Of a DNA stretch of 64,000 bases, positions 27,621 to 61,117 are shown piece after piece (position 1 is the first letter of the stretch; each line of letters starts with the position of its first letter). Both the position numbers and the translations under genes were made by a program. Source of the DNA: Malacoraja senta (taxonomy: Eukaryota); contig CM075995.1 in the NCBI GenBank assembly GCA_038087875.1, positions 3,040,001 to 3,104,000 of the forward strand, in the 5' to 3' direction. The notes below the pieces were generated by a model. It was not told where the DNA came from. It saw only the letters and a program-made list of their open reading frames with translations, and searched no databases.

Positions 27621-28062
27621 AAAAAGCTAAAGAGTCATGAGTTTATTATGTCCTTACATATACATGCACACATATACTGTGTCAGTTTATTGTCATGTGT
27701 AACTAGGTACAGTGAAAAGCTTTTGTTGCGTGCAAACAAGTCAGTGAAAATACAATACATGATTACAATCGAGCCATTTACAGTGTATAGAGAGCGGATA
27801 AAGGGAATAACGTTTAGTGCATGGTAAAGCCAGCAAAGTCCGGTCAACAATAGTCTAATCACCAATGAGGTAGATAGTAGCTCAGGACTGCTCTCTAGTT
27901 GTGGTAGGATGATTTAGTTGCCTGATAACATGGAAGAAACTATCCCTGAATCTGGTGGTGTGCATTTTCATACTTCTCTACACTTTGCCTGATGGGACAA
28001 TGGGAGAAGAGGGAGTATCCACGGTGCGAATGGTCCTTGATATATTTACACACACTCATATA

Positions 28063-29476
28063 TCTATATTACTAAAAGTCTGATCTTGACCATTTCCTGT
28101 TGTTCTGTTGATGGATTTAGAAAAAACGCTGCCACTTAAGGCTGTGATTTTTGGCCATCTTACTCAGAGTCCCCCTCCGCTGCGCAGGAGAAGAAGATGT
28201 TTCCCATCGATGAAAAATAAAAGAGTTATTAATGTTTACAAAACGTTGAGATTCTCTCGCCTGAAGGCCACACCCCTTCCGGAGGGACTATAAAACCCAG
28301 AAGCGTTGAGTGCCCCAGTCAGTCTCTGCAAGATGGGGGAGCGAGAGGGTCACGTCTCTCAGTCTGAGCTGTGAATAACACTGAACACATGTCTACTAAA
28401 CTGTGAATGGTTTTACTGACCTGTCAGCGCCCTTAATGTGGTTTGAAAATGTAGTTTGGAAATGCTAAAGCTGTGTTGCCTTTGGTTTGGAAATGCTAAA
28501 GCTGTGTTGCCTTTGGTTTGGAAATGCTAAAGCTGTGTTGCCTTTGGTTTGGAAATGCTAAAGCTGTGTTGCCTTTGGTTTGGAAATGCTAAAGCTGTGT
28601 TGCCTTTGGTTTGGAAATGCTAAAGCTGTGTTGCCTAATTAAAGTTGCCTTGTCAAATTAAAGTTGCCTTGTCGAATTAAAGTTGCCTTGCCTAATTAAA
28701 GTTGCCTTGCCTAATTAAAGTTGCCTTGCCTTCTATATAATTAAAAGTCTAATCTTGACCACTTCCTGTTTGCGCTTTATATTGATTTTAGAAAAAATGA
28801 TACCACATACAGCTGTGATTTTTGGCCATCATACTCAGAGTCCCTCTCCGCTCATCAAGTGCTGAGGATTCTTCCCATCGATGAAAAATAAAAGTTATTA
28901 GTGTTTCAAAAATGTTGAGATTCTCTGTCCTGTCAATCACGCCATGAAGGCCGCGCCCCTTTTGGTGGGAGGCGAGAGGGACTATAAAACCCAGAAATGT
29001 AGGCGTGGCTCAGTCTCTGCAAGATGGAGTAGGGAGAGGTCACGACTCGCTGTCTTTAGTGGCCTTGCACCCTGCTTGAAATGGTATGAAACTGCACTTG
29101 TATCTAGTGGCCTTGCACCCTGCTTGAAGTGATAAGAAACTGCACTTGATTTTGGTGGCCCCGCACCCTGCTTGAAATGGAATTTCAAGGAATAGCCGTG
29201 AGTAAACTGCCAGCCCACCAGCCGTGAGTGAGTGAGCTGCCAGCACAACAGGCTTGAGTGACTGAACCGCCAGCCCAAGAATCCATTTGGCCCACAATAT
29301 CCATACTAGCCCTCCGGAAACCAGTCCCTTCAACCCACAACACCCATACTAGCGCTCCAGAAAGCCCCTCCCCCCCCGGGCCACAAATATTGGAATTGGT
29401 GGAGAGGTGGAATATTGTATTGGGGGACCAGCCCTCCCTTGAGAACATGGGACCCAACGGGTCCCACTTAGTCTAG
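28063..29476 (+). mobile_element. Non-autonomous Helitron with a duplicated 5' module
   Basis: A|TC start (tctatattactaaaagtc), second 5' start at ~28732, 3' hairpin tgggaccc-aac-gggtccca (29448-29466), then CTAG|T. Confidence 0.9.
28454..28730 (+). repeat. Internal minisatellites of Helitron 1 (31-bp and 19-bp units)
   Basis: tttggtttggaaatgctaaagctgtgttgcc about x6, then taattaaagttgccttgcc about x5. Confidence 0.9.
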
Positions 29477-29583
29477 TATATATATATAACTGTGATTATT
29501 ACTTTCACAGACATTCTCAGTATTGTGTAGACGCACACACACACACATGTACATGCACACACATACATTTGTATATATATATA

Positions 29584-31144
29584 CTAGACTAAGTGGGACC
29601 CGTTGGGTCCCAGCATCACACGGGACGGCTGGTCACCCAATGCAATATTCCACCTCTCCACCAATTCCAATATTGCTGGCCAGTGGGGGGAAGGGGGGGG
29701 GGAGGCTTTCTCTTGCGCTAGTATGGGTGTTGTGGGCCTAAGGTACTGTTTTCCAGAGGGCTAGTATAGACATTGTGGGCCGAATGGATTCTTGGGCTGG
29801 CAGCCAACTGTTGCAACGATTTTAAAAGCCAAGCCAAGGCCACAATTTGGCAGCAGCCACTCGACAACCAAAATCCATTTTGTGAACACAAACTTTTTAA
29901 AAGGCGAGGCAAACAATTGGGCAGCAGCCACCCGACAACCAAAATTCATTTTGTAAACAAACTTTTTAAAAAGGCGAGGCAAACTATTGGGCTGCAGCCA
30001 CCTGACAACCAAAATTCATTTTGTGAAAACAAACTTTTAAAAAAGACGTGGAAAACAATTGGGCAGCAGACACCCGACAACCAAAATTCATTTTGTAAAC
30101 ACAAACTTTTTAAAAAGGCGAGGCAAACAATTGGGCAGCAGCCACCCGACAACCAAAATTCATTTTGTGAACACAAACTTTTTAAAAAGGCGAGGCAAAC
30201 AATTGGGCAGCATCCACCCGACAACCAAAATTCATTTTGTGAACAGAAACTTTTTTAAAAAAGGCGAGGCAAACAATTGGGCAGCAGCCACCCGACAACC
30301 AAAATTCATTTTGTGAACACAAACTTTTTAAAAAGGCGAGGCAAACAATTGGGCAGCAGCCACCTGACAACCAAAATTCATTTTGGGAACACAAACTTTT
30401 TAAAAAGGCGAGGCAAACAATTGGGCAGCAGCCACCTGACAACCAAAATTCATTTTGTGAACACAAACTTTAAAAAAAAAGGCGTGGCAAACAATTGGGC
30501 AGCAGCCACCTGACAACCAAAATTCATTTTGTGAACACAAACTTTTTAAAAGGCGAGGCAAACAATTTGGCAGCAGCCACCTGACAACCAAAATTCATTT
30601 AGTGAACACAAACTTTAAAAAAAGGCGAGGCAAACAATTGGGCAGCAGCCACCTGATAACCAAAATTCATTTTGTGAACACAAACTTTTTAAAAAGGCGA
30701 GGCAAACAATTGGGCAGCAGCCACCTGACAACCAAAATTCATTTTGTGAACACAAACTTTTTAAAAGGCGAGGCAAACAATTTGGCAACAGCCGCATCGA
30801 GGGGATTCACCGTGGAGTAGGCGTTCAGTGTTATTCACAGCTCAGAGAGCCGTGACCCTCTCGCTTCCTGGGTCTGGCAGAGACTGAGTAAGGCATTACA
30901 CTTCCGGGTTTTATAGTCCCTCCCCCTGCCGCCAGCGGGGGCACCAGAGAGAATGACGATTAAAAAAACCCCATTAATTTCTCTCTGATTTTTCATCGAT
31001 GGGAAAAATCCTCCAGTCCCGGAAGGCGGAGGGGGGCTCTGAGCGAGGTGGCCAAAAATGACGGCCGTAGGTGGCGGTTTTCTCTCGGAAATCGCAGCAC
31101 CAGTGAGTCAAAAGCGGTCAAGATCAGACTTTTAGTAATATAGA
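29584..31144 (-). mobile_element. Non-autonomous Helitron, related family, opposite strand
   Basis: Minus-strand A|TCTATATTACTAAAAGTC start at 31144; same hairpin and CTAG|T end at 29584. Confidence 0.9.
29849..30790. repeat. 72-bp minisatellite, about 13 copies, inside Helitron 2
   Basis: Unit ggcagcagccacccgacaaccaaaattcattttgtgaacacaaactttttaaaaaggcgaggcaaacaattg. Confidence 0.95.
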
Positions 31145-31764
31145 TATTTGTAGATGTGTGTGTCTACACAATACTGAGAGTGTCTGTCACAGGTCATGCT
31201 TTGCATTAAAGCCTGACAAGTCTCAGCAGACAACTGTTAAGAATACATACCTTAAAGGAACTCAGTTATTTCCTGCTGTTTTTAACTTTGACCTGGAAGC
31301 AACCTGGAGAGATTGAGTTAGCGCGGAGTGGTGCACGCATCCACCAATCCACAGGAACTTCCAACATTAGCCTGAGAAAGATCTTTGAATTTATTTCAGA
31401 ACTGTGTGTTGGTTTAGTATCATGATATTAGGAAATTCCATGTAGTTTGTTAACACTTTGTTGTATGTGCAACTAACATTATTAAATTCAACAGGGGAGG
31501 GGAGGGGAGGGGAGGGGAGGGGTGGGGGAAGACTCTATTCCTTGGAGTGCAGGAGGTTGAGGGGTGAACTCATAGAGGTGTGTAAAATCATGAGAGGAAT
31601 AGTTCTTGCCCAGAGTAGGTGAATTGACGACCAGAGGAAAGGGGTTTAAGGTGGTGGAAAAGATTGAATAGGAACCCGAGGGGAAATTTTTTTACACAAA
31701 GTTTAACGAGCTGCCAGAGGTGGTAGTTGAGGCAGGTTCTATCAGTACGTTTAAAAAACATTTA

Positions 31765-32764: not shown

Positions 32765-33197
32765 TTAGACAGGTACATAGATAGGACAGTTTTACAGGGA
32801 TATGGACCAAACACAGGCAGGTGGGACGAGTGTAGATGGTGATTGTGAGTAGGCATGGGAAGTTGGGCTGAAGGACCTGTTTCCATGCTGTATGACTCTA
32901 TGACACTAGGTATTAGTTAATGTTAAACAGCTTATTTAAAGCTGGTTTGCCGTGGTGATTTTTCACATAGCAGGCAGGACGTTACATGACAAGACGTTGT
33001 TTGATCATGTGTATAGAAAATGTTTTCCAATGCTGGAGAGAACTTCACCTTTGGACGTGGATTGTAAGTGATTGCCAGGGCTATGAACAGTGATGACTCT
33101 CTTAAATTATCTGTTGCTAGGAGTCCAGAGCAGCAAAACATATATGAGAACTTTGCTTAGAGTGGTGAAGCATCGGAATAGGATCTTCAGCCCCTTC

Positions 33198-36100
33198 TCA
33201 AGTTCAAGTGAGTTTATTGTCATGTGTCATCGGACAATGAAATTCTTGCTTTGCTTCAGCACAACAGAACATAGAAGGCATTGACTACAAAACAGATCAG
33301 TGTGTCCATATATCATTATATAAATATATACACACATGAATAAATAAACTGATAAAGTGCAAATAACACATAATGGGCTATTAATGTTCATAGTTTTGTC
33401 CGAGCCAAGTTTAATAGCCTGATGGCTGTGGGGAAGTAGATATTCCTGAACCTGTTCATTGCAGTCTTCAGGCTCCTGTACCTTCTACCTGAAGGTAGCA
33501 GGGAGATGAGTGTGTGGCCAGGATGGTGTGGGTCCTTGATGATACTGCCAGCCTTTTTGAGGCAGCGACTGCGATAGATCCCCTTGATGGAAGGGAGGTT
33601 AGAGCCGATGATGGACTGGACAGTGTTTACTACTCTTTGTAGTCTTTTCCTCTCCAGGGCGCTCAAGTTGCCGAACCAAGCCACGATGCAACCGGTCAGC
33701 ATGCTCTCTACTGTGCACGTGTAGAAGTTAGAGAGAGTCCTCCTTGACAAACCGACTCTCCGTAATCTTCTCAGGAAGTAGAGGCGCTGATGTGCTTTCT
33801 TAATAGTAGCATCAGTGTTCTCGGACCAGGAAAGATCTTCAGAGATGTGCACGCCCAGGAATTTAAAGCTCTTGACCCTTTCAACCATCGACCCATTGAT
33901 ATAAACGGGACTGTGGGTCCCCAACCTACTCCTTCCAAAGTCCACAATCAGTTCCTTGGTTTTGCTGGTGTTGAGGGCCAGGTTATTGTGCTGGCACCAT
34001 ATGGACAGTTGCTCGATCTCTCTTCTGTATTCTGACTTATCCCCATCAGTGATACGACCCACAACAGTGGTGTCGTCAGCGAACTTGATGATCGAGTTCG
34101 CACTATGGCTGGCTATGCAGTCATGATTATAGAGTGAGTACAGCAGGGGACTGAGCACGCAGCCTTGAGGTGCTCCCGTGCTGATTGTTATCGAGGCTGA
34201 CACATTTCCACCAATACGAACAGACTGTGGTCTGAGAATGAGGAAGCCGAGGATCCAATTGCAGAGGGATGCGCAGAGACCCAGTTCTGCGAGTTTGGTA
34301 ACCAGCTTGGAGGGGATGATTGTATTAAATGCCGAGCTGTAATCGATGAATAACAGCCTGGCATATGAGTTTTTGTTGTCCAAGTGGTCCAGAGCGGAGT
34401 GGAGGGCCAGCGAGATCGCATCCACCATTGATCTGTTGTGGCGGTAAGCGAACTGCAGTGGGTCCAGGTTCTTGTCGAGGTAGGAGTTGATGTGCACCAT
34501 AATCAACCTCTCAAAGCACTTCATCACCACAGGCGTTAGTGCCACAGGTCGATAGTCATTGAGGCACGTCACCTTACTCTTCTTGGGCACTGGTATAATT
34601 GCTGCCCTTTTGAAGCAGGTGGGAACCTCAGACCTCAGAAGTGAGAGGTTGAAAATGTCCGTAAAACTCCAGCCAGTTGGTCGCACAGGTTTTTATAACG
34701 CGACCAGGTATACCATCAGGTCCAGGCGCTTTTCGAGGGTTCACTCCTCTGAAGGATTTCCTGACGTCGGCCTCTGTGACTGAGACTGAAATACCATCAC
34801 AGCGAATGGGAGCTCGGGAAGGCACATCGGTGTTCTCCCTATCAAAGCGTGCGTAAAACTCATTGAGCTCATCAGGGAGTGATGTTTCGCCGACATTCGA
34901 GCTGCCTCCCGATTTTACCTTGTAGGAGGTGATTGCATTCAGGCCCTGCCACAGCTGCCGAACATCTGTCTCTTCCTCCAGTTTGGAGCAGAAGTCCCTT
35001 TTGGCCTTTTTGATGGCCTTACCAAGGTCGCATCTGGACTTCTTGTAGACCACTGTATCATCAGACATGAATGACCGGTGTCTGGTCTTCAGAAGAGTGC
35101 GGATCTCAAAGTTCATCCAAGGTTTGGGAAATACTCGGAAGGTTTTTGTAGGGATGCAGTCCTCCACACATTTCTTAATGAAGTCTGTAACGACTGTGGC
35201 GTATTCGTTCAAGTCCGTTGCCGAGTCCTTGAACATTGCCCAGTCTACAGACTCCAAACAGTCCTGGAGTTGTTCCTCTGCCCCCCCCCCCACTCCCGAC
35301 CAGTTCTGCACTGTCCTCACCTCTGGGGGTGCGCTCTTTAATTGCTGCCTGTAGGCAGGAAGAAGCAGCACCGTGGTATGGTCAGATTTACCGAAGTGAG
35401 GGCGAGGGATAGAGCGGTAGGCATTCTTGATGGTGGTGCAGCAGTGGTAGAGGGTGTTTGGTCCTCTGGTGCAGCAGGAGACATGTTGGTGGAAGTTAGG
35501 GAGTGATTTCTTTAGGTTTGCCTTATTGAAGTCCCCAGCAATGGTGGTAAATGCCTCGGGGTAAGACGTCTGGTGTTTGTTGACCACAGCGTGCAGCTCC
35601 TCCAGTGCCAGACGGACGTCTGCCTGCGGTGGGATGTAGACCGCGGTCAGGATGATGAAGGTGAATTCCCTCGGAAAGTAGAAGGGACGACACTTCACCG
35701 CCAGATGTTCGAGGTGTGGAGAGCACGAGTTGGACAGGACTGCCACGTCTGAGCACCACGCAGAGTTGACCATGAGGCAGACGCCTCTTCCTCTCCCTTT
35801 CCCAGATGCCAGTGTACGGTCTATACGGTGGATGGAGAACCCTTCAGGCTGGACCGCTGAGTCTGGGGAGCTGAGGGTGAGCCATGTCTCGGTAAAACAG
35901 AACACAGAGCATTCCCTCAGCTCCCTTTGATAAAGCAGTCTTGCCCTTAAGTCCTCCACTTTATTTTCAAGGGACTGTACGTTGGCCAGTAGGATAGTAG
36001 GGAGAGGGGGCCGAAGTCCCCTGCGCTTCAGTCTGACCTGAAGTCCTGCCCGCCGGCCACGTTTCCGGACACAATGGAGGCTTCCCCTTTGTTTCCAGGC

Positions 36101-36522
36101 GCTGAGTCTACTGTACCTGCTGTTTCTGCGGACCTGCGCTGGAACAGGGATTCCTTTCAAGACGGCAGCTCCAGCTCCGTAACGAACGGGGGTACATTCA
36201 AAGTCGGCAGCTCCAGCTTCATTGTTCCTGGAGGATCCAGCTCGTCAGCTCTGGAGGTCATCCCGTGGTTTCAAGGTGCCGTACCTGGGTTCCTCAGTCG
36301 GGTCGGGTGTTTCACAGCCAGCATGGGAAAGTTTAAAGTCCGGGGCTCCCGCAGCTGCGGGAGATGGTGAAATTGCGAGAGCCTTGAGGTGCTCAAGCAG
36401 CTTGTCTGAAATGGCACCGTTTTCTGCCGTTTTCCTGATCCAGGTGAGTTGATTGAAGTTGTATCTAAGTCTTTTAGGGTCTGGTCCTCCACAAACGTCG
36501 CCGCAGGCAGGCGCCATCTTGA
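33198..36522 (-). mobile_element. Near full-length Rex1/Babar non-LTR retrotransposon
   Basis: 5' aagatggcg start; AP endonuclease (LANVQSL, FTETWL, AGDFN, SDH) then RT ([24 protein letters not shown]); 3'UTR ending gacaataaactcacttgaacttgag. Confidence 0.95.
33388..36160 (-). pseudogene. Rex1/Babar endonuclease-reverse transcriptase ORF, frameshifted near 34680
   Basis: Overlapping ORFs 34628-36160 (APE domain) and 33388-34686 (RT domain). Confidence 0.9.
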
Positions 36523-36737
36523 GAGGGTACAAGATACTTTATCTATGCTGAGCAAGATAGCCTACCTAAGCTCGTCTCATTTGCCCATATACAGCTACAC
36601 CTTTCCTATCCAAGCACCTGACCAAATGTCTTTCACATGTTGTTATTGTATCTGCCTCAACTACCTTCTCTGGCAGCTCAATCCATACGCTCACCACCCT
36701 CTGTGTGAAAAAGTTGCACCTTAGGGTACTGTTCATC

Positions 36738-36975
36738 GGGCGCCACAGTAATGCAGCAGCGGAGCTGATCTTTCACAGCGCCAGTGACCCGGGCTCGATC
36801 CTGACTGCGGGTGTTGTCTGTGCGGACTATGTACGTTCTCCCCATGACCACATGGGTTTTCTCCGGGTGCTCCGGTTTCCTTCCACAGTCCAAAGATCTG
36901 CAGGTTTGTAGGTTGATTGGAATCTGTATATTGACCCTGGTGTGCAGGATGTGAAAGTGGAATAACATGGAACTA
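36738..36975 (+). mobile_element. V-SINE variant
   Basis: gacccgggctcgatcctgact, V-domain gggttttctccgggtgctccggtttcc. Confidence 0.8.
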
Positions 36976-37478
36976 GTCATAGAGTCGTACAGTGTGGAAA
37001 CAGGCCCTTCGGCCCAAGTTGCGCAGACCAACCAACATGCCCCATCTACACTAGTCCCACCTGTCTAAGTTTGGTCCCTCTAAACCTGTTCTATCCATGT
37101 ACCTGTCTAAATGTTTTGTAAGCGTTGTGATAGTACCAGCCTCAACTACCTCCTCTGGCAGCTTGTTCCATACACCTACGACTCTTTATATAAAATAAGT
37201 TACCTCTTGGTTTCTTATTATGTCTTTTCCCCTTTGCCTTAAACCAATGTCCTCTGGTTTTCAACTCCCATACTCCCTGCATTTACCAAATCCTCTGACG
37301 TTCCGGAGAGAATGTTCCAAGTCTATCCAACCTTGCCTTGTAGCTGAGACACAGTAATCCAGTCAGCGTTCAGGCAAACCTCCTCTGCACCCTCTCCAAA
37401 GCCTCCATCTACATCTGTCTTGTAATGGGGTCGGCAGAATGCCCACAATACTTCCAATATAGCCTAACTGAAGTCTTA

Positions 37479-37990
37479 AATGCCTGTCTCACGAGTCTGC
37501 GGTCATTGGCGGCGAAACAGGAACTGTCTACCGCTCCTGGGCCGCCAGAGACCGCAGGCTCAGTCAAACGCACAATTCCGGGGCCGTGCAGCGTTGTTCC
37601 CAACACCGCACGGTGCTAAAAAAAACCCAACACTGTCCAAAAATATGTTCCTACTGCACAGCCGCCGCCAGTGAGGCACGAGTGTGGCACGGTCACCGCC
37701 ACAGCCGCCGCCAGTGAGGCATGAGTGCGGCACGGTCACCGCCACAGCCGCCGCCAATGAGGCACGAGCGCCGTGAGCCGAACCTGCACCGCCACAGCCG
37801 GCGACAGTGAGGTACGTGTGCGGCACGGCCGCCGCCACAGCCCCGCGATCCGAAAGACGTCATCAGCCGAAACCGCAAGCTCGTGGAACCGGACGTACTT
37901 GGCCCCCGCACAGCATCCGTGCGGCGCTCTCGTGGTTGCCGTGCGGTCCCCTCTTCCGGCGAACGACCGCAAACCCGTGGGACAGAGCTT
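37479..37990. mobile_element. GC-rich PIF/Harbinger-type MITE in a CR1 fragment (duplicate at 58771-59302)
   Basis: TTA TSD; TIR ctgtctcacgagtctgcggtc / gaccgcaaacccgtgggacag; internal gccgccgccagtgaggcacgag repeats. Confidence 0.85.
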
Positions 37991-38754
37991 TTACAGAGCT
38001 TCTTCATGGCTTCCGATCATATTGTTATTTTATCGTAATGCAATCATATTGTAATTTTACAACAATTTGGTGTCATTGACAGGATCTAACCAACATGTGG
38101 AAGGGAAAAGATCAGACTTCACGAGAAGCAGAGGGAGAGGGAGAAAATATAAATATTGGCTGCGCCACTGCGTCTTGTTGCCCAGTTATTGATACAAAAT
38201 TGAGTTGCTTGAAGAGTGTAATTGGAATATAGTAAACACTGGGACGAAGCTACTCAATGCATTTACGGATTGCTTCATGGAAGTGGACCTTTCGGTAATA
38301 AAGTCAGAGAAACATTCAGCATGAAACAGGCCCATTAGTCCAACTAGTCCATACCAACCAAGATGCCCCACCCCCACCCCACTAAGTTAGTCCCATTTGT
38401 ATGCATTTGGCCCATATCCCTCTAAAGCTTTCCTATCCAAGTACCTGTCCAAATATCTTTTAAATGTTGTTATTGTACCTGAAATAATTGCCTATTCTGG
38501 CAGCTCTTTCTAGATACCTATCACTCTCAGTGTGGAAAGTAATCATGAGGAAGGTGTAACTCAAGTTGCTTGGCTATTACTTTCTGCAGTTCAGGGGTTA
38601 TGAAAAGAAAAAGATGCATTAAAAGCTGAAATTCAGGTATGGGTGGAGGAAAAGAAAATATTCAGCGGCATATTTCCACTGTTGCTTTAGCAGAGACAGA
38701 ACAATCTGTCCATAGAGTGCAGAAAAAGGTGGAGGATAAAATGTCTAACTCGGC

Positions 38755-38971
38755 TTCAGAGTTCAGAGATACAGCGCGGAAATAGGCTCTTCGGCCCACC
38801 AAGACTGCAACAACTAACAATCATCCCATACACCAACACTATCGTACACAATACGGACAGTTTGCAATTTTATTGAAGCCAATTAACCTATAAACCTGTA
38901 CGTCTTTGGAGTGTGGGAGGAAACCGGAGCACCTGGAGAAAACCCGAAGGAGAACGTACAAACTCTGTACA
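38755..38971 (-). mobile_element. V-SINE 3' half (its 5' half is at 44678-44758)
   Basis: Breaks at caaactctgtaca and resumes as ctctgtacagacggcacccgtag at 44678. Confidence 0.85.
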
Positions 38972-39592
38972 TATAACCATATAACCATATAACCATATAA
39001 CAATTACAGCATGGAAACAGGCCATCTCGACCCTTCAAGTCCATGCCGAACACTATTTCTCCCCTAGTCCCATATACCCATCCAATCTATTTTTAAATTA
39101 TAAAATCGAACCTGCCTCCACCACTTCCACTGGAGGCTCATTCCACACAGCTACCACTCTCTGAGTAAAGAAGTTCCCCCTAATGTTACCCCTAAACTTC
39201 TGTCCCTTAATTCTCAAGTCATGTCCTCTTGTTTGAATCTTCCCTACTCTCAGTGGGAAAAGCTTATCCACGTCAACTCTGTCTATCCCTCTCATCATTT
39301 TAAAGACCTCTATCAAGTCCCCCCTTAACCTTCTGCGCTCCAAAGAATAAAGACCTAACTTGTTCAGCCTTTCTCTGTAACTTAGTTGCTGAAACCCAGG
39401 CAACATTCTAGTAAATCTCCTCTGTACTCTCTCTATTTTGTTGACATCCTTCCTATAATTAGGCGACCAAAATTGTACTCCATACTCCAGAATTGGCCTC
39501 ACCAATGCCATGTACAATTTTAACATTACATCCCAACTTCTATATTCAATGCTCTGATTTATAAAGGCCAGCACACCAAAAGCTTTCTTTAT
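38972..39592 (-). mobile_element. 5'-truncated CR1, same subfamily as 40421-44677
   Basis: ORF 39098-39595 KKAFGVLAFINQSIEYRSWD..; (GGTTATAT)n tail. Confidence 0.95.
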
Positions 39593-39594
39593 CA

Positions 39595-39644
39595 TGCGCA
39601 GCGCAGACAGGAAGTGGTCAAGATGAGACTTTTAGTTATATAGA
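39595..39644 (-). mobile_element. Helitron 5'-end stub
   Basis: Minus strand tctatataactaaaagtctcatcttgaccacttcctgt matches the Helitron starts at 28063, 28732 and 31144. Confidence 0.8.
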
Positions 39645-39649
39645 TATAC

Positions 39650-39692
39650 AGATGCACATATACACAAACTCAAAAACAAATGATAGTAGTGC

Positions 39693-39756
<64 letters not shown>

Positions 39757-40265
39757 GTCTATTGTAGTTTAGAGCTTATTTGAGGTTGTAATGTTTAATA
39801 GCCTGAAGGCTGCAGGGAAGAAGCTGTTCCTGAACCTGGACGTTACAGTCTTCAGGCTCCTGTGCCTTTTTCCCGATGGGAGTGGTGAAATGTGTGTGTG
39901 GCCAGGATGGTGTGGGTCTCTGATGATGTTGGCTGCCTTTTTGAGGCAACGACTCCGATAAATCCCTTCGATGATGCGGAGGTCAGAGCCGGTGATGGAC
40001 TGGGCAGTGTTCACAACTTTTTCCAGTCCTGGACATACAAGTTGCCGAACCAGGCCATGATATGCTCTCTATGGTACTCCTGTAGAATGTTCAAGAGAAT
40101 CCTCTCTGACATACCGAATCTCCGTAATCTTCTCAGGAAGTAGAGGCGTTGATGTGCTTTATTTTTAATTGCATCAGTGTGCTGGGTCCAGGAAAGATCT
40201 TTGGAAATATGCACGCCCAGGAATTTGAAGTTTTTGACTCTCTCCACCCCGTTGATATAAACAGG
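39650..40265 (-). mobile_element. Rex1/Babar 3' fragment containing (TAA)n
   Basis: [30 protein letters not shown]. Confidence 0.9.
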
Positions 40266-40522
40266 ACAAAAACAGGATCATTACATAAAGCTACAGTTTA
40301 GTTTAGTTCAGATTATTGTCACGTGTAGCAAGGTACAGTGAAAAGCTTTTGTTGCCTGCTATCCAGTCTGCGGAAAGACAATGCATGATTACAATCAAGC
40401 CATGTATCATAGACACATGATATAACCATATAACCATTATAGCACGGAAACAGGCCATCTCGGCCCTTCAAGTCCATGCCGAACACTTTTTATATTTTTC
40501 CCTTCTTTCTTCTTACTTCCCC

Positions 40523-43330
40523 CTAGTCCCATCTACCTGCACTCAGACCATAACCCTCCATTCCTTTCCCATCCATATACCCATCCAATCTATTTTTAAA
40601 GGATAAAATCGAACCTGCCTCCACCACTTCCACTGGAAGCTCATTCCACACAGCTACCACTCTCTGAGTAAAGAAGTTCCCCCTAATGTTACCCCTAAAC
40701 TTCTGTCCCTTAATTCTCAAGTCATGTCCCCTTGTTTGAATCTTCCCTACTCTCAATGGGAAAAGCTTATCCACGTCAACTCTGTCTAACCCGCTCATCA
40801 TTTTAAAGACCTCTATCAAGTCCCCCCTTAACCTTCTGCGCTTCAAAGAATAAAGACCTAACTTGTTCAGCCTTTCTCTGTAACTTAGTTGCTGAAACCC
40901 AGGCAACATTCTAGTAAATCTCCTCTGTACTCTCTCTATTTTGTTGACATCCTTCCTATAATTAGGCGGCCAAAATTGTACTCCATACTCCAGAATTGGC
41001 CTCACCAATGCCTTGTACAATTTTAACATTACATCCCAACTTCTATATTCAATGCTCTGATTTATAAAGGCCAGCACACCAAAAGCTTTCTTTACCACCC
41101 TATCTACATGAGATTCCACCTTCAGGGAACTATGCACAGTTATTCCTAGATCCCTCTGTTCAACTGCATTCCTCAATTCGCTACCATTTACCATGTACGT
41201 CCTATTTTGATTTGTCCTGCCAAGATGTAGCACCTCACATTTATCAGCATTAAACTCCATCTGCCATCTTTCAGCCCACTCTTCCAAATGGCCTAAATCT
41301 CTCTGTAGACTTTGAAAATCTACTTCATTATCCACAACACCACCTATCTTAGTATCATCTGCATACTTACTAATCCAATTTTCCACACCATCATCCAGAT
41401 CATTGATGTACATGACAAACAACAGTGGACCCAACACAGACCCCTGAGGCACCCCACTAGTCACCGGCCTCCAACCTGACAAACAGCCATCCACCATTAC
41501 TCTCTGGCATCTCCCATTCAGCCACTGTTGAATCCATCTTGCTACTCCACCATTAATACCCAACAATTTAATCTTCTTAACCAACCTTCCATGAAGAACC
41601 TTGTCAAAGGCCTTACTGAAGTCCATATAGACAACATCTACTGCTTTACCCTCATCAATTTCCCTAGTAACCTCTTCGAAAAATTCAAGAAGATTTGTCA
41701 AACATGACCTTCCAGGCACAAATCCATGTTGACTGTTCTTAATCAGACCCTGTTTATCCAGATGCTTATATATATTATCCCTAAGTATCCTTTCCATTAA
41801 TTTGCCCACCACTGACATCAAACTAACAGGTCTATAATTGCTAGGTTTACTCTTAGAACTCTTTTTAAACAATGGAACAACATGCGCAGTACGCCAATCC
41901 TCCGGCACTATTCCCATTTCTAATGACATTTGAAATATTTCTGTCATAGCCCCTGCTATTTCTACACAAACTTCCCTCAATGTCCTAGGGAATATCCTGT
42001 CAGGACCTGGAGACTTATCCATTTTCATATTTTTCAAAAGTGTCCACACTTCCTCTTCTTTGAATCTCATAGTTTCCATTGCTACTCTGCTCATTTCCCT
42101 TACCTCACATAATTAAATATCCTTCTCCTTGGTGAATACCAAAGAAAAGAAATTGTTCAATATCTCCCCCATCTCTTTTGGCTCTGCAGATAGCAGTCCA
42201 CCCTGACTCTCTAATGGACCAATTTTATTCCTTGTTATCCTTTTGCTATTAATATAGCTGTAGAAACCCTTTGGGTTTACTTTCACCTTACATGCCAAAG
42301 CAACCTCATATCTTCTTTTAGCTTTTCTAATTTCTTTCTTAAGATTCTTTTTACATTCTTTATACTCCTGCAGCACCTCATTTACTCCATGCTGCCTATA
42401 ATTATTGTAGATCTCTCTCTTTTTCCGAACCGTGTCCAATTTCCCGTGAAAACCATGGCTCTTTCCAATTTTTACTATTTCCTTTCAACCGAACAGGGAC
42501 ATAAAGATTCTGTACTCTTAAAATTTCACCTTTAAATGTCCTCCATTTCTCTTCTACATCCTTCCCATAAAACAACATGTCCCAATTCACTCCTTTTAAA
42601 TCCTTTCGCATCTCCTCAAAGTTAGCCAGTCAAAAATCTCAACCTTAGGTCGAGTTCTGACCCTCTCCATAATTATATTGAAACTAATGGTATTGTGATC
42701 AATGGACCCAAAGTGCTCCCCAACGCATACCTCAGCCACCTGCCCTGTCTCATTTCCTAACAGGAGGTCCAGCACTGCCCCTTCTCTTGTAGGTACCTCT
42801 ATGTATTGCTGCAAAAAACTATCCTGCCCACATTTTACAAACTCCAAACCATCCAGCCCTTTTACAGAATGTGTTTCCCAGTCTATGTGTGGAAAATTGA
42901 AATCTCCCACAATCACTACCTTGTGCTTACTACTAATATCTGCTATCTCCTTACATATTTGCTCTTCCAATTCTCGCTCTCCATTAGGCGGTCTATAATA
43001 CAACCTATTAGTGTTGCTACCCCTTTCCCATTTCTCAGTTCCACCCAAATAGCCTCCCTAGACGAGCCCTCTAATCTATCCTGCCAAAGCACTGCTGTAA
43101 TATCTTCCTTGACAAGCAATGCAACACCCCCACCTCTTGCCCCTCCAATTCTATCACCCCTGAAGCAACGAAATCCTGGAATATTTAGTTTCCACTCACA
43201 GCCCTCCTGCAACCATGTTTCACTGATCGCCACAACATCATACTTCCAGGTGTCAATCCTGGCTCTAAGCTCATCCACCTCTCTTACAGTGCTCCTAGCA
43301 TTTAAATATACACATTTAAGAAACCCACCA
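40523..43330 (-). pseudogene. CR1 ORF2 (APE endonuclease + RT); frameshifts and a stop in the N-terminal half, 523-aa RT part open
   Basis: YLNARS, ISETWL, VGDFNFP, DHN; RT: QHGF, DFSKAFDKV, GVPQGSVLGP, KYADD. Confidence 0.95.
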
Positions 43331-43463
43331 CCACTTATTCTCTGTTTATTATCTTTTTCTTCTTTCTCCCCTACATTTTGGGTCCGAGTGCTTCCCTTCT
43401 CTGCCTCCTGCCTCACACCCTGACTACTAGCTTTCCCTATTCGAGTCCCTCCCCTCAACCGTT

Positions 43464-44391
43464 CTAGTTTAAAGTCTCCCCAGTTGCCTTTGCAAATCTC
43501 CCCGCCAGGATATTGGTCCCCCTCGGGTTCAAGTGCAACCCGTCCTTTTTGTACAGGTCACACCTTCCCCAAAAGAGGTCCCAATGATCCAGAAACTGGA
43601 ATCCCTGCCCACTGCACCAGTCCCTCAGCCACGCATTTATCCTCCACCTCATTCCATTCCTACTCTCACTGTCTCGTGGCACAGGCAGTAATCCTGAGAT
43701 TGTTATTTTTTTGGTCCTTCTCCTTAACTCTCCTCCCATCTCCCTAAATTCTCCTTTCAGGACCTCTTCTCTCTTTCTACCTATGTCATTGGTACCTATA
43801 TGTACCATGACCTCAGGCTCCTCTCCCTCCGATTTCAGGATATCTTGGACGCGTTCAGACACCTCCCTGACCCTGGCACCAGGGAGGCAAACTACCATCC
43901 GGGTCTCCTGACTGCATCCACAGAATCGCCTATCTGACCCCCTAACCATAGAGTCCCCTATTACTATTGCCCTCCTCTTCTTTTCCCTACCCTTCTGAGC
44001 AACAGGGCCGGTCTCTGTGCCGGAGGCCCGGCCGCTGTCGCTACCCGCAGGAAGGCTGTCCCCCCCAACAGTACTCAAACATGAGTACTTATTTTCAAGG
44101 TGTACAGCCACCGGGGGTACTCACTAGTCCTTGCCTCTGCCCCTTGCCCTTCCTAACCGTGACCCACTTGTCCGCCTCCCGTGGTCTTGGAGTGACCACC
44201 TCCCTATAACTCCTTTCTATAACCTCCTCACTCTCCCTGATCAGACAGAGGTCATCGAGCTGTTGCTCCAGGTTCCTAACACGGTCCCTTAGGAGCCCCA
44301 TCTGGACACAGATGTGGACGTCTGGAGGGGTATCAGACTCCATGACCTCCCACATCTGACATCCAGAACAGTAAACTGCCCTGGCCCTCAT
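43464..44391 (-). pseudogene. CR1 ORF1: Cys-rich N-terminus, coiled coil and SGNH/GDSL esterase; frameshift near 44100
   Basis: CSGCQMWE; VIGDSMVR, VHIGTND, DGLHLN esterase blocks. Confidence 0.9.
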
Positions 44392-44919
44392 TCTCCCCTT
44401 CTGTACCTGGGATAATATACAAAGCCTTACCCTGGATTCAATACAAAGCCTTACCCTGGGTACAAGCCAATCAGCGGCTTCCCCTAGTCCGTTTCCACAA
44501 ATCAGTGGCTTCCTCAAGCCCACTTATTTTGAAGTGTGAACTGCGGATGGAACGTTGCAGAGTTTGGTTCCTCCTCCCTCTGTAACGGCTCCTGGGCCTC
44601 TGCTGAAACAAGCCCCGTGATGGGTTTTTGAACCTACCGCCCGGACGTCGCTCCTCCCTCTGTAACGGCTCCTGGGCCTCTGTACAGACGGCACCCGTAG
44701 TTAGGATTGAGCCCGGGTCGTAAGGCAGCGACTCTACTGCTGCCCCACCGTGGCGCCCCACAGCTTTGATAGTTACTGTTATATTAATGAATAAAATATC
44801 TCTGAGATGCAGGATGTGAGCATTAAATCCATCATTGATAAAAGACTGGGATCCTGACATTTGGGCCTTTACTGAAGATGAGAGAATGGACGGAAATGGA
44901 GGAAGAAGCAAATGGCACA

Positions 44920-50827: not shown

Positions 50828-53255
50828 TTTTACTTCGGAGTCACGTGAGTGACTACGTGAAGAAGCCCGCCAGCCCGCATGCGTGTCATTACGTCTAACG
50901 CATGGCGCACGACTGGCTGGCAGGCGCGTCGCTCCTCCAGCGGTAAGTTTCAAAATCCTGCAGGTAAGTTTTCTAACTTAATTTCAGGTTGTGCTTTTTC
51001 CTTGCAGGAAGCTCTTTTACAGAGTTCCTGCTGGATGACATTCCGGGGTCGAAACCCGGCTACGGAGACCGCGGAGAATCCCGGCTCCGTGGGGAAACCC
51101 GGCTCGGGGAAACCCGGCTAGGGAGATCACGGGCAATCCCGGCTCCGCGGGGAAACCTGGCTCGGGGAAACCCGGCTACGGAGACCGCGGGGAATCCAGG
51201 CTCCGCGGGGAGGCCCGGCTCGGGGAAACCCGGCTACGGAGACCGCGGGAGTGCGGGCAGCCTGCGGCGGTCGGATTCGCTACCCAAGTCGCTGACAGGG
51301 TGGTCAGCGACTCCAGACTCCGGCAGCCCCGAGAGGCTGTGCAGCCGAACGGAGTCCGAGAGGCCTGGACTGGGACAAGTCAGGCCAGGAGGGTTCCCCT
51401 CCATGGGTACGTCCTCGGACGTTTACCCAGGTGGAGCATGGATGCGTCAGCAGGGCGTTCATCCCACTGAGGTGATGCTCCACCCTGATATGGTCTGTGG
51501 AATGGGGCCATTTCAGCGCAAGTCTCGTCGGGGACCTGCAACAGCACCTGTTTCAGGGCTGCTTACAAATCTCCCTCTCTGTGGAAGGGAGTGCGAGGGG
51601 TCAGTGTGTGACTGACTCCAAACTGGGAAGTATGTCCGTGAAACATACTGGAGTACATGCGTGAGGTTCAAGAATTGTCTGTCATGGCATCAAGGGTTGC
51701 TATATCCTCGCAAACGGAGGTGCCGCTGCAAGAAGAGTTGGTTTCCAGCCTATGGCAGAAAACCCGGGGGGGGGCAGGGTTTCCCCTCACATTACAAGCT
51801 TGGTAAGCATCAGTGACCTCACGTCACGTCATTACAGGAACATACACCTGTAAATTGTGCATTCCTGAAGGTGCCGGCAGTGAACAGCGCTATCTGTGGA
51901 GACTATGCATGGCGAGGCCAGCAATTTCCAGCCGCCGAATCTTCTCCTTGGAGAAGACCTAGCCAAACAGGTAAAAAACCTGGATGAGGAAGCAAAGCTG
52001 TCGGACTAATCAAGGTACCAGCGACGAGCAAAGCTTCACCGTTTTGGTGACAAACACCCCTACGCCTCCATCGGCAGTAAGCGGTTCACTGAAGCTGGTG
52101 GCAGCTTGAAAGCTGATTCTCTGGGCAGAGGTCTTCAGGCCTAGGCCCAAGCCGGCCCTCATGGAAAATGTGCAATCCACGCACCCCAGCAGTCCTACCC
52201 TCCAAATCAAGGACGGGAATAGAACCCACATCAGGGGCCTTTGGGCTTACCGTAAGACCACCGGTAACCATGCAGGTACGTGGGTCTGGTTCTTTCCGAC
52301 ACATTGGTTGTGTGGATCAGTTACAAGTTGGTGAGATTACACTTGTTTTGAATGAAAGGCATTGGATAACATCAGATTCGTTTATACTGCACAGTATACA
52401 ATGTTTCCAAATTGAATTCAATTCATTGCTACCCACACAGCATACGCCAAACCGGACATTGTCCATTCACAACAGGAAGGTTTGGATGTACAAGCTGAAA
52501 ATCAAAAGTTATATACAAAAGGGGTAATTGAGAAGTCGAGTCTTGAACCAATTTGTTTATAATATATTTTGACTCGACTTAACTCGTTTTGTGCAGTATA
52601 GACATTTCAAAATGGGAAACTTTGTTACTGCCAAACGACTGGTTTCCATAGGGTGTTATATGGCATGCATCGATCTCAAAGATGCACACTATCTCGGTAC
52701 CCTTTCGCTGGGATCACCTGAGATATTTGAAATTTAGCTGGATGGGGCAACTGTGGCAGTTTAAAGCATTGCCTTTTGTGTACCTTCGATTTTCCAGCAT
52801 CTGCAGTTCCTTCTTTAACACTAAAGCATTGCCTAATGGGTTAACTTCAGCCCAGATTATTTACCAAATTATTGAAGCCAGTACTTGGGCTACTTCGAGC
52901 TCAAAATCATATTGTTATGGCATATTTGGATGATATCCTAATCATAAGGAAAACCCTGGAGTTGGCTAAATTAGCTGTTTCAGCCACTAAACACATGTTT
53001 GAGAGATTGTGGTTCTCATCCATCCAGTTAAATCAAAGTTGATACCATCCAGAATTATTGAGTATTTGGGATTTACCATTAACTCTATTTTACATGTCTG
53101 TGACTCTGCCTTGGGGCAAGAGATTAGAATTAATAGAAGCCTGTAACAATCTCGTTGTTATGGAGCAACCTTCTATTCGACAATTAACCAGAGTAATTGG
53201 CAAATTAGTGGCTGCTTTCCAGCTGCACAGCTTGGGTCTTTGCATTATCAGAATG
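50828..53255 (+). mobile_element. Decayed DIRS-like (tyrosine-recombinase) retrotransposon, 5' part; interrupts a SINE
   Basis: Starts ttttacttcggagtcacgtgagtgactacgtgaag; gag-like PVNCAFLKVPAVN; RT remnants IDLKDA, WQFKALP.NGLTSA, FTKLLKPV..MAYLDDILI (YLDD 52923-52934), IEYLGF; the YR domain is not seen in the window. Confidence 0.8.
52775..52821 (+). mobile_element. 47-bp insertion of the Penelope-module 3' end into the DIRS RT
   Basis: 13-bp TSD taaagcattgcct (52762-52774, 52822-52834); insert matches ~4799-4842. Confidence 0.9.
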
Positions 53256-53259
53256 AGCA

Positions 53260-54239
53260 AAGGAGCAAGCAAGCAGTTAAATTACAATCTGATTAGTACA
53301 ATCCGTATTTGGAAACAAATAAAACAAAATTTAAAATTAAGAAACTTATCACTTTTATTACCTATAGTCAATAACCCTTCGTTTAGTCCTTCTATTATAG
53401 ATAAAGCTTATACACAATGGGATAGACTAGGAATTAAAACGCTTGGTGACTTGTATGAAACTGGAAAATTACTTTCATTTCAACAATTACAAATAAAATA
53501 TAAACTCGGAAATAATCAATATTTTAAATACTTTCAAATATGCGACTATTTGAAAAAATATACAAAAGATCATCATAATAACCCAGCAGATGTACTGGAC
53601 GAGGCAATGCAGATAAAAGCGGAATCAGCAAACTTAATATCATATTTGTACAATATTATCTTAAATGCACAAATACCATCTACGGAGGGTATCAGAAGAG
53701 ACTGGGAACAAGAGTTAGCTATTAAAATTTCAAAGGAAAGTTGGAATGAATACTTATTAAAAGTGCATAAATGCTCGATTAATGTAAGACACACTTTAAT
53801 ACAATTTAAAATTTTACATAGATTATATTATTCGAAAACTAAAATTCATAAAATTTTCCCAAACGTATCATCTATTTGTGATAAATGTCAATCCCAAGAA
53901 GCAACTATAGCGCACTCATTTGTCTTCTGTACAAAAATTCAAAAATTTTGGAATTAAATTTTTGAAATCTTTACAAAGTTATTTAAAACAAGACTGATAC
54001 CCAAAGCAGAATGGATTATCTTCGGAATAACGGAAGATGATCCAGAACTAAATGTGTTTCAAAAGAAATTAATGGATTATGGGTTAATAACTGGAAAAAA
54101 GCTAATTCTAAAATTTTGGAAGAAGGCTCCAATACCAACTATAAATATGTGGATTTCAAATATGTTTGAAACATTACACCTTGAAGAGATAAGACTCCTC
54201 CTAGCAGGTAAACCAGATCACTTCCACCTGACGTGGTCT
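53260..54239 (+). mobile_element. L1-clade LINE ORF2 C-terminal fragment, running into the gap
   Basis: WDRLGIKTLGDLY..FKYFQI..QFKILHRLYYS..CDKCQSQEATIAHSFVFC (CCHC zinc knuckle); abrupt shift to AT-rich sequence. Confidence 0.85.
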
Positions 54240-54439
54240 NNNNNNNNNNNNNNNNNNNNNNNNNNNNNNNNNNNNNNNNNNNNNNNNNNNNNNNNNNNNN
54301 NNNNNNNNNNNNNNNNNNNNNNNNNNNNNNNNNNNNNNNNNNNNNNNNNNNNNNNNNNNNNNNNNNNNNNNNNNNNNNNNNNNNNNNNNNNNNNNNNNNN
54401 NNNNNNNNNNNNNNNNNNNNNNNNNNNNNNNNNNNNNNN
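54240..54439. other. Assembly gap (200 N)
   Basis: Run of N. Confidence 1.
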
Positions 54440-57400
54440 GGAGTCCAGAGCAGCAAAACATATATGAGAACTTTGCTTAGAGTGTGAAGCATCGAAATAG
54501 GATTCTTCAAGCCCCTTCTCAATTTCAAGTGAGTTTATTGTCATGTGTCATAGGACAATTTAAATTCTTGCTTTGCTTCAGCAAACAGAACATAGAAGGC
54601 ATTGACTACAAAACAGATCAGTGTGTCCATATATCATTATATAAATATATACACACATGAATAAATAAACTGATCAAGTGCAAATAACACATAATGGGCT
54701 ATTAATGTTCATAGTTAGTCCAAGCCAAGTTAATAGCCTGATGGCTGTGGGGAAGTAGCTATTCCTGAACCTGGTCGTTGCAGTCTTCAGGCTCCTGTAC
54801 CTTCTACCTGAAGGTAGCAGGGAGATGAGTGTGTGGCCAGATGGTGTGGGTCCTTGATGATACTGCCAGCCTTTTTGAGGCAGCGACTGCAATAGATCCC
54901 CTCGATGGAAGGGAGGTCAGAGCCGATGATGGACTGGGCAGTGTTTACTACTCTTTGTAGACTTTTCCTCTCCAGGCGCTCAAGATGCCGAACCAAGCCA
55001 CGATGCAACCGGGTCAGCATGCTCTCTACTGTGCACCTGTAGAAGTTAGAGAGAGTCCTCCTGGACAAACCGACTCTCCGTAATCTTCTCAGGAAGTAGA
55101 GGCGCTGATGTGCTTTCTTAATAGTAGCATCACGTGTTCTCGGACCAGGAAAGATCTTCAGAGATGTGCACGCCCAGGAAATATTAAAAGCTCTTGACCC
55201 TTTCAACCATCGACCCATTGATATAAACGGGACGGTGGGTCCTCAACCTACTCCTTCCAAAGTCTGCAATCAGTTCCTTGGTTTTGCTGGTGTTGAGGGC
55301 CAGGTTATTGTGCTGGCACCATATGGACAGTTGCTCGATCTCTCTTCTGTACTCTGACTTATCCCCATCAGTGATACGTCCCACCAACAGTGGTGTCGTC
55401 AGCACTATGTCCGGCTACGCAGTCATGAGTATAGAGTGAGTACAGCAGGGGCTGAGCACGCAGCCTTGAGGTGCTCCCGTGCTGATTGTTATCAAGGCTG
55501 ACATATTTCCACCAATACGAACAGACTGTGGTCTGAGAGTGAGGAAGTCGAGGATCCAATTGCAGAGGGATGCGCAGAGACCCAGTTCTGCGAGTTTGGT
55601 AACCAGCTTGGGAGGGGATGATTGTATAAATGCCAAGCTGTAATCGATGAATAACAGCCTGGCATATGAGTTTTTGTTGTCCAAGTGTCCAGAACGGAGT
55701 GGAGGGCCAGCGAGATCGCATCCACCGTTGATATGTTGTGGCGGTAAGCGAACTGCAGTGGGTCCAGGTTTTTGTCGAGGTAGGTGTTGATTTGCACTAT
55801 GATCAACCTCTCAAGCACTTCATCACCACAGGCGTTAGTGCCACAGGTCGATAGTCATTGAGGCACGTCACCTTGCTCTTCTTGGGCACTGGTATGATTG
55901 ATGCCTTTTGAAGCAGGTTGGGAACCTCAGACCTCAGAAGTGAGAGGTTGAAATGTCCGTAAAAACTCCAGCCAGTTGGTCGAACAGGTTTTAGAACACG
56001 ACCAGGTATACCATCAGGTCCAGGCACTTTTCGAGGGTTCACTCCTCTGAAGGATTTCCTGACGTCGGCCTCTGTGACTGAGACTAAACATACCATCACA
56101 GCGAATGGGAGCTCAGGAAAGGCACATCGGTGTTCTCCCTATCAAAAGCGTGCGTAAAACTCATTGAGCTCATCAGGGAGTGATGTTTCGCCGACATTCA
56201 AGCTGCCTCCTGATTTTGCCTTGTAGGAGGCGATTGCATTCTGGCCCCGCCACAGCTGCCGAACATCTGTCTCATCCTCCAGTTTGGAGCAGGTCCCTTT
56301 TGGCCTTTTTGATGGCCTTACCAGGGTCATATCTGGACTTCTTGTAGACCACTGTATCATCAGACATGAATGCCCAGTGTCTGGTCTTCAGAAGAGTGCG
56401 GATATCAAAGTTCATCCAAGTTTCTGATTGGGAAACACTCGGAAGGTTTTTGTAGGGATGCAGTCCTCCACACATTCTTCTTAATGAAGTCTGTAAACGA
56501 CTGTGGCATATTCGTTCAAGTCTGTTGCCGAGTCCTTGAACATTGCCCAGTCTACAGACTCCAAACAGTCATGTAGTTGTTCCTCTGCCCCACCCCCCCC
56601 CCCACCCCCGACCAGCTCTGCACTGTCCTCACCTCTGGGGGTGCGCTCTTTAATTGCTGCCTGTAGGCAGGAAGAAGCAGCACCGTGGTATGGTCGGATT
56701 TACCGAAGTGAGGCGGAGGGATAGAGCGATAGGCATCCTTGATGGTGGTGTAGCAGTGATCGAGGTGTTTGGTCCTCTGGTGCAGCTAGGAGACATGTTG
56801 GTGGAAGTTAGGGAGTGATTTCTTTAGGTTTGCCTTATTGAAGTCCCCAGCAATGGTGGTAAATGCCTCGGGGTAAGACGTCTGGTGTTTGTTGACCACA
56901 GCGTGCAGCTCCTCCAGTGCCAGACGGACGTCTGCCTGGTGTGGGATGTAGGCCGCGGTCAGGATGACGAAGGTGAATTCCCTCGGAAAGTAGAAGGGAC
57001 GACACTTCACCGCCAGATGTTCGAGGTGTGGAGAGCACGAGTTGGACAGGACTGCCACGTCTGAGCACCACGCAGTTGACCATGGCAGGCAACGCCCCCT
57101 CCTCTCCCTTTCCCAGATGCCAGTGTACGGTCTATACGGTGGATGGGAGAAGCCCTTCAGGCTGGACCGCTGAGTCTGGGGAGCTGAGGGTGAGCCATGT
57201 CTCGGTAAAACAGAACACAGAGCATTCCCTCAGCTCCCTTTGATAAAGCAGCCTTAAGTCCTCCACTTTATTTTCAAGGGACTATACGTTGGCCAGTAGG
57301 ATAGTAGGGAGAGGGGGCCGAAGTCCCCCGCGCTTCAGTCTGACCTGAAGTCCTGCCCACCGGCACGTTTCCGGACACAATGGAGCTTCCCTTTGTTTCC

Positions 57401-60400: not shown

Positions 60401-61038
60401 CCCTCCATTCCTTTCTCGTCCATATACCCATCCAATCTATTTTTAAATTATAAAATCGAACCTGCCTCCACCACTTCCACTGGAGGCTCATTCCACACAG
60501 CTACCACTCTCTGAGTAAAGAAGTTCCCCCTAATGTTACCCCTAAACTTCTGTCCCTTAATTCTCAAGTCATGTCCTCTTGTTTGAATCTTCCCTACTCT
60601 CAATGGGAAAAGCTTATCCACGTCAACTCTGTCTATCCCTCTCATCATTTTAAAGACCTCTATCAAGTCCCCCCTTAACCTTCTGCGCTCCAAAGAATAA
60701 AGACCTAACTTGTTCAGCCTTTCTCTGTAACTTAGTTGCTGAAACCCAGGCAACATTCTCGTAAATCTCCTCTGTACTCTCTCTATTTTGTTGACATCCT
60801 TCCTATAATTAGGCGACCAAAATTGTACTCCATACTCCAGAATTGGCCTCACCAATGCCTTGTACAATTTTAACATTACATCCCAACTTCTATACTCAAT
60901 GCTCTGATTTATAAAGGCCAGCACACCAAAACTTTCTTTATGCGCAGCGCAGACAGGAAGTGGTCAAGATGAGACTTTTAGTTATATAGATATACAGATG
61001 CACATATACACATACTCAAAAACAAATGATAGTAGTGC

Positions 61039-61117
<79 letters not shown>

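Follow-up and report, generated by a model that had tools for sequence, protein, structure and literature searches.

Can a long interspersed nuclear element (LINE) that is thought to need its own 3' tail for priming nevertheless carry neighbouring DNA to a new site? For L1, such 3' transduction is textbook knowledge. For CR1, the question is raised by a 64,000-nt stretch of the genome of Malacoraja senta, vertebrate DNA rich in repeats (contig CM075995.1 of assembly GCA_038087875.1; the whole stretch is called the window here, and position 1 is its first letter). In it, one short interspersed element (SINE) is split by a 5.7-kb block in which two CR1 elements, each with its own tail, enclose 0.83 kb of other, apparently older repeats. 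An earlier interpretation made without database searches, the sequence-only reading, had proposed a CR1 3' transduction. Our analysis leans the same way: we give a probability of roughly 0.55 to the block having arrived in one CR1 retrotransposition, its template being a read-through RNA on which priming likely took place at the second CR1 tail. This preference rests on priors, namely a very large and recently active CR1 family, and not on a discriminating result.

One SINE and one target site

The 9-mer CTCTGTACA stands at both breakpoints of the SINE, at 38963-38971 and again at 44678-44686, as the sequence-only reading had noticed, and the match extends no further on either side. The 3' part of the SINE covers 38754-38971 and differs by 18% from the majority of the in-window copies; the 5' part, placed by alignment to these copies, covers 44678-44759. 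Both lie on the minus strand and belong to a tRNA SINE that we take to be V-SINE-like, in line with a table in PMC3747384. In the alignment the two halves were entered as separate rows, and 14 of the 23 rows retrieved were true copies of the SINE region and were kept for the counts. Measured against these 14 other copies, the halves overlap by exactly 9 nt and join without any other gap or duplication.

The halves also agree in type. At two diagnostic sites, compared over 13 other copies, the TGC-type 3' site occurs in five of the six copies with T at the 5' site and in none of the seven with C; the split SINE shows T at the 5' site and TGC at the 3' site. Halves from different subfamilies, the outcome that had been named as speaking against the proposed transduction, are thus not observed. 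The A in TGTACAGAG was found in only one of the 14 other SINE copies.

The nine-mer had been put forward as the repeat at the SINE breaks. It is indeed present, but the true duplication may be shorter, because both CR1 ends share bases with it. The first five nucleotides of the right copy, CTCTG, also end the CR1's own 80-bp 5' monomer, and the final CA of the left copy begins the tail unit CATATAAC, which starts at 38970. The duplication proper therefore measures 2-9 bp, most simply 4 bp. For L2 and CR1, target duplications are reported to peak at 3-5 bp (PMC4245944). Since the core falls inside this peak, the outer junctions look like those of an ordinary CR1 insertion, with 2-nt microhomology to the tail, 5-nt microhomology at the 5' end and a 4-bp core. 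A single target duplication encloses the element together with its flank. A duplication around the SINE itself (AAGCTG / AAGCCG) was considered and dismissed as too short to count.

Two CR1 ends and the cargo between them

The larger part of the block is a near-full-length, decayed CR1 at 40420-44682 on the minus strand. Starting from its 3' end, it comprises the tail and hairpin (about 40420-40480, by sequence and folding), the reverse transcriptase (RT; 40526-42112, PF00078), the endonuclease (42599-43557, by Pfam match), an esterase-type first open reading frame (ORF1; 43467-44523) and a 5' untranslated region (UTR) with 1.4 copies of the 80-bp monomer, 44571-44602 being the same as 44651-44682. 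Endonuclease and RT were matched by PF14529, PF03372 and PF00078 (E 5.9e-35) on broken frames, and ORF1 by PF13472 (E 5.3e-14) and PDB 4c1b_A (E 3.5e-28). The term full-length, used in the sequence-only reading, holds insofar as every domain is present; the element stops inside the second monomer, and its ORFs are split into six pieces. The RT is 90% identical to a protein of Leucoraja erinacea over 53% of the query and 83% identical to one of Mobula hypostoma; the matches listed are skate, ray, bird and turtle RTs that carry no family names. By these identities the host is most probably a skate. The 3' hairpin is followed by an 8-mer microsatellite tail, which is described as a feature of the CR1 clade (PMC8665684), and ORF1 is described as absent from chondrichthyan L2s (PMC13343379). 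Judged by its sequence, the element has the features of the CR1 clade: an esterase ORF1, an endonuclease-RT ORF2, a 3' hairpin and an 8-mer tail.

The second, 5'-truncated CR1 lies at 38972-39594, likewise on the minus strand. Its own tail, claimed from the letters, stands up to folding: the predicted hairpin is intact and four CATATAAC units occupy 38970-39001. The window holds a second copy of much of the block (see below), so that four CR1 ends can be compared. All four are predicted to fold into one stem-loop with a GAGAU loop, at modest z-scores of -1.7 to -2.35. Short and long CR1 end differ in both block copies at 14 of 631 columns (2.2%, i.e. 97.8% identity), apart from a 26-bp indel. 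A 26-bp stretch in the 3' UTR of the long CR1 is missing from the listed loose ends of relatives. A 44-bp deletion at 39074 of the short CR1 is seen relative to the second block copy. Compared with five relatives, skates and rays among them, the private load of the long CR1 amounts to three amino-acid changes and that of the short CR1 to one change and a stop, and these private coding changes are common to both block copies. From these comparisons, the two CR1s are best described as separate insertions of one young family that are about equally decayed, and their similar private load fits a movement soon after both had inserted.

Between the CR1s lies the cargo, in which all pieces are on the minus strand as had been stated. 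Next to the short CR1 stands the 5' stub of a Helitron-like, non-autonomous element (39597-39652, about 56 nt), which matches three other 5' ends in the window (28056, 28731 and 31147) with 92-93% identity. A Rex1-like LINE fragment with the end of an ORF and a 3' UTR follows at 39653-40262 (77-89% identical to in-window paralogs); it contains (AAT)21 at 39693-39756, and its portion 39653-39692 was assigned to the UTR by eye only. After a 32-nt spacer (40263-40294), whose sole in-window paralog is in the duplicate copy, a second LINE is represented at 40295-40422 by its final 125 nt, 3' end with tail, which are 78-88% identical to longer in-window copies. We take both LINE pieces to be Rex-like, Pfam having returned only PF09004. 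The second LINE is cut at the tail of the long CR1 with 3-6 nt of microhomology, and its paralogs continue past the cut.

No element of the cargo is present as two halves, and a CR1 junction truncates the cargo at either end. The block lacks the second LINE's 5' part, the body of the Helitron, and the 3' terminus and tail of the Rex1-like LINE; within the window this bears out the earlier remark that the remainders are absent. The Rex-like element cut by the Helitron is thus also without its own 3' terminus here. With 77-93% identity to in-window paralogs, compared with 97.8% between the two CR1s, the cargo pieces look older than the CR1s. No gene was found in the cargo, no other cargo site exists within the 64-kb window besides the duplicate copy, and the window gave no tRNA or Rfam match. 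Because the pieces are cut off rather than nested, and because an origin in place needs two deletions and two close SINE breaks, the cargo most likely came from another locus. A simple nested series of insertions is ruled out, as no cargo element exists as two halves; so is capture by a Helitron, the sole Helitron end being an internal 5' stub.

The second copy mentioned above lies at 54440-64000 on the plus strand, directly after a gap of 200 N (54240-54439), and corresponds to 33120-42639, so that the duplicated stretch measures at least 9.5 kb. Its share of the block, which begins at 60269, comprises the SINE 3' part, the short CR1, the cargo and, of the long CR1, 2.2 kb. In a self-alignment it is 96% identical to the first copy overall, about 1% divergent inside the block and 3-4% divergent with many small indels near the gap. 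The SINE-tail, CR1-Helitron and Rex-tail junctions are repeated in it; it ends before the 5' junction, which is hence seen only once. It is probably the other haplotype, retained by the assembler, and possibly a tandem duplication. As a donor of the block it was rejected, since the 3' part of the SINE and 5.6 kb of left flank accompany it just as they do the first copy.

Several further observations concern the same element families. The CR1 5' UTR has a 24-bp tandem repeat at 44406-44460. The monomer region 44571-44682 occurs at high depth in one related run, and for this reason the 80-bp monomer seems to belong to the CR1 family as a whole. CR1-type RTs that are 64-69% identical to that of the long CR1 also occur under the names Klebsiella pneumoniae and Proteus mirabilis, on contigs of less than 1.7 kb; they probably represent vertebrate contamination of bacterial records. 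A long Rex1-like LINE copy, paralogous to the cargo fragment, lies at 33204-36500 on the minus strand. The Helitron-like elements of the window start with TC and end with a hairpin and CTAG. Two of them, non-autonomous and facing each other, occupy 28056-31147, with their 3' ends about 100 bp apart (hairpin and CTAG near 29450-29480 and 29585-29610); one has a second internal 5' end at 28731 as well as 31-bp and 19-bp arrays, and in the other a 72-bp minisatellite unit is repeated 13 times.

Read-through or copying between CR1 copies

How could such a block arise in one step? At a donor locus, the long CR1 would have inserted into a Rex-like LINE, and the short CR1 of the same family into a Helitron 0.83 kb downstream of it. 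Transcription from the long CR1 would have run through its own tail, the CR1 protein would have bound the hairpin of the downstream short CR1, and target-primed reverse transcription would then have proceeded from the short CR1 through the cargo to the long CR1, placing the copy in the SINE. Related L2 proteins are reported to need loop recognition, which depends on the cognate stem-loop (PMC4176376). A read-through RNA primed at the second tail would account for all features by a single event and by known chemistry only, the short CR1 having kept such a stem-loop. The inner junction, with 3-6 nt of tail microhomology in the Rex-like LINE, is as expected for a former insertion of the long CR1 there; the missing half of that LINE was not found at the 5' end of the long CR1. 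Of the claim that a read-through transcript was primed at a downstream CR1 tail, much is well matched, i.e. one target site, halves of the same SINE subfamily, a cut-off cargo, and an intact hairpin and tail; what weakens it is that copying of DNA between CR1 copies predicts the identical final structure.

This identity of the expected structures is the first of several points that weigh against read-through. Neither a donor nor an empty site was seen in the window or among the public-run matches listed. The ORFs of the long CR1 are broken, so that either later decay or movement in trans must be assumed. On the transcribed strand, the cargo has AATAAA at 40163 and ATTAAA at 40169 and 39799, and these poly(A)-like hexamers could end the RNA before the second tail. 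The 5' end is rarely reached in this family: in two related runs, depth at the ORF1 start is, as a rough figure, 2-4% of the 3' peak. A near-full-length CR1 upstream does not discriminate, as copies of this length make up a few percent of the family whichever model holds. Finally, the in-window paralogs may overstate the age of the cargo, as closer family members may exist elsewhere.

Public runs were searched with the cargo (39760-40440) as query. Part of the cargo's words occurred in 20 of the 23 rows listed, from eight coded organisms and with shares of 0.39-0.45; these are probably family-wide words and constitute no evidence either way. Contigs of four of the 23 listed runs were then aligned at 90% to 39760-44910, a stretch outside which the left junctions lie, as would an empty-site joint. 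The result is dominated by CR1 copies (7174 loose ends, 558 joints and 312,247 pieces beyond those listed), and among the matches listed no piece spans a cargo junction or the SINE junction, which in an alignment so swamped by CR1 proves nothing. A contig of 239 nt from organism F matches 44725-44910 with six substitutions and two insertions and stops 38 nt before the junction; a relative therefore possesses the right flank and some of the SINE's 5' half. Metagenome scans gave no match to the 22-nt spacer pattern, and 69 pattern matches to the CR1 C-terminus, none of which was confirmed.

The alternative that survives best needs no RNA step for the cargo. Here, the long CR1 would have inserted first, which accounts for the outer junctions as an earlier, normal CR1 insertion, and a break in its last 620 bp would have been repaired from, or recombined with, a distant locus in which the 0.83-kb cargo stands between two CR1 3' ends, the cargo being copied between two CR1 homologies by repair or by recombination with an excised circle. 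The cargo is flanked on both sides by direct repeats of about 620 bp with 97.8% identity, read-through past poly(A)-like signals is not needed, and there is a precedent in Alu, a repeat-bounded duplicative transposition described as proceeding via two template switches (bioRxiv 10.1101/2025.07.09.663898). Against this stand the two switches required onto an ectopic template that is 2% divergent, and the frequency of the competing process, as retrotransposition within a very large, recently active CR1 family is probably far commoner than such repairs. Along the shared stretch the 14 fixed differences lie dispersed, which is compatible with both models; of the sites listed for testing the CR1 ends for a mosaic, just two fall inside it. 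We consider this alternative unlikely, although it deserves serious attention.

A jump between templates would likewise carry non-CR1 DNA through tail priming and is, in our view, improbable. The CR1 enzyme would have been primed on a host RNA ending in the short CR1, copied through the cargo into the Rex-like piece, stopped within it and switched to another RNA, that of a full-length CR1, at its 3' end. The microhomology of 3-6 nt at the inner junction suits such a switch, and stringent LINEs are reported to make template-switch chimeras, such as U6-L2 in platypus and anole (PMC4476161). The jump involves two RNAs, of which the non-CR1 one is copied first, whereas the chimeras described copy the LINE RNA first, and it must land exactly on an intact tail.

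Stepwise events in place, i.e. two CR1 insertions into two SINE copies with large target deletions that left the remnants adjoining, can draw on target-site truncations known for these LINEs (PMC4245944) and on a region dense in SINE, Rex-like and Helitron copies. They would need two independent breaks whose overlap is confined to 9 nt in a SINE of 300 nt (about 3% for position alone), the same SINE subfamily and strand, and deletions that both removed exactly the missing halves, which makes this course very improbable. An assembly path that jumped between the CR1 copies of two loci is scarcely credible either: a gap and a probable false duplication do adjoin the region, and none of the public runs listed contains half of the cargo's words (no share reached 0.5), but the second copy, which has indels of its own and diverges by about 1%, shows the same SINE-tail, CR1-Helitron and Rex-tail junctions.

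Elsewhere in the window, a GC-rich element at about 50840-53260 combines a tandem array of 58-bp units with short stretches that look RT-like, near 52700-53250, and presumably resembles the DIRS type. An AT-rich 3' piece of L1/Tx1-like character interrupts it at about 53290-54239.

Consequences and known systems

The locus itself is without evident function, because the event carried only old repeats; its value is that of a template for a genome-wide search. Only tentatively, and against our own better guess, can it be generalised that the 3' ends of young CR1s serve CR1 as downstream poly(A) sites serve L1, so that whatever DNA lies from an expressed CR1 to the next CR1 tail on the same strand becomes movable. 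If this were true, a stringent LINE would cause recurrent, unrecognised shuffling of flanks and exons in CR1-dense genomes, i.e. in skates, sharks and perhaps turtles and crocodilians, and this locus would be the first natural example. By the two-tail route, CR1 would keep its stringency and yet duplicate up to kilobases of flank. The two-tail structure is precise enough as a signature for its occurrences to be counted in any assembly built from long reads.

CR1 stringency usually serves to explain why retrocopies are scarce where CR1 dominates a genome, and it is cited as the reason for their small number in birds (PMC5470649, citing Suh 2015). In the titles and abstracts of the literature searched, which left most subscription journals outside and thus gives weak evidence of novelty, no two-tail transduction by CR1 was found; the word transduction is absent from the main text, as available, of two CR1 surveys (PMC8665684 and PMC13343379).

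By its features, the element resembles HER1 of cartilaginous fishes, whose V-SINE partner is HE1 and which is described with an esterase ORF1, an endonuclease-RT ORF2, a hairpin and an 8-mer tail (PMC3747384). Unlike a canonical CR1 of the HER1 type, the copy studied here is decayed and has the 26-bp 3' UTR stretch, and the likeness is one of features.

As regards the DNA-level alternative, the duplicative transposition of Alu (bioRxiv 10.1101/2025.07.09.663898) shares with our case a segment copied elsewhere with homologous repeats at both ends; there, tens of kilobases are described in primate segmental duplications, here 0.83 kb lies between CR1 3' ends. The U6-L2 chimeras (PMC4476161) are alike in that a stringent LINE co-inserts a foreign RNA within one target duplication, and differ in that the foreign RNA is found at the 5' end, while here it would be internal, between two tails.

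The sequence-only reading started from the premise that transduction is not to be expected of a stringent LINE, which overstates the case. The assays described in PMC7265360 report 3' transduction by R7Ag and R1Bm and none for SART1Bm, so that LINEs dependent on their own 3' UTR are able to carry read-through sequence, as proposed for the present locus. Those are site-specific insect elements in plasmid assays, described as being primed downstream without a second copy of the tail.

The closest parallel for a read-through origin is the partnered 3' transduction of L1 (Moran 1999, Goodier 2000 and Pickeral 2000, as cited in PMC5470649 and PMC7265360), in which a long element, its own tail, the downstream flank and a second tail are likewise described within one target duplication. 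L1, however, primes on any poly(A), whereas here the second priming would require an entire CR1 3' end, including the hairpin and the 8-mer repeat. On an L1-type route of this kind, the cargo must therefore end in another CR1.

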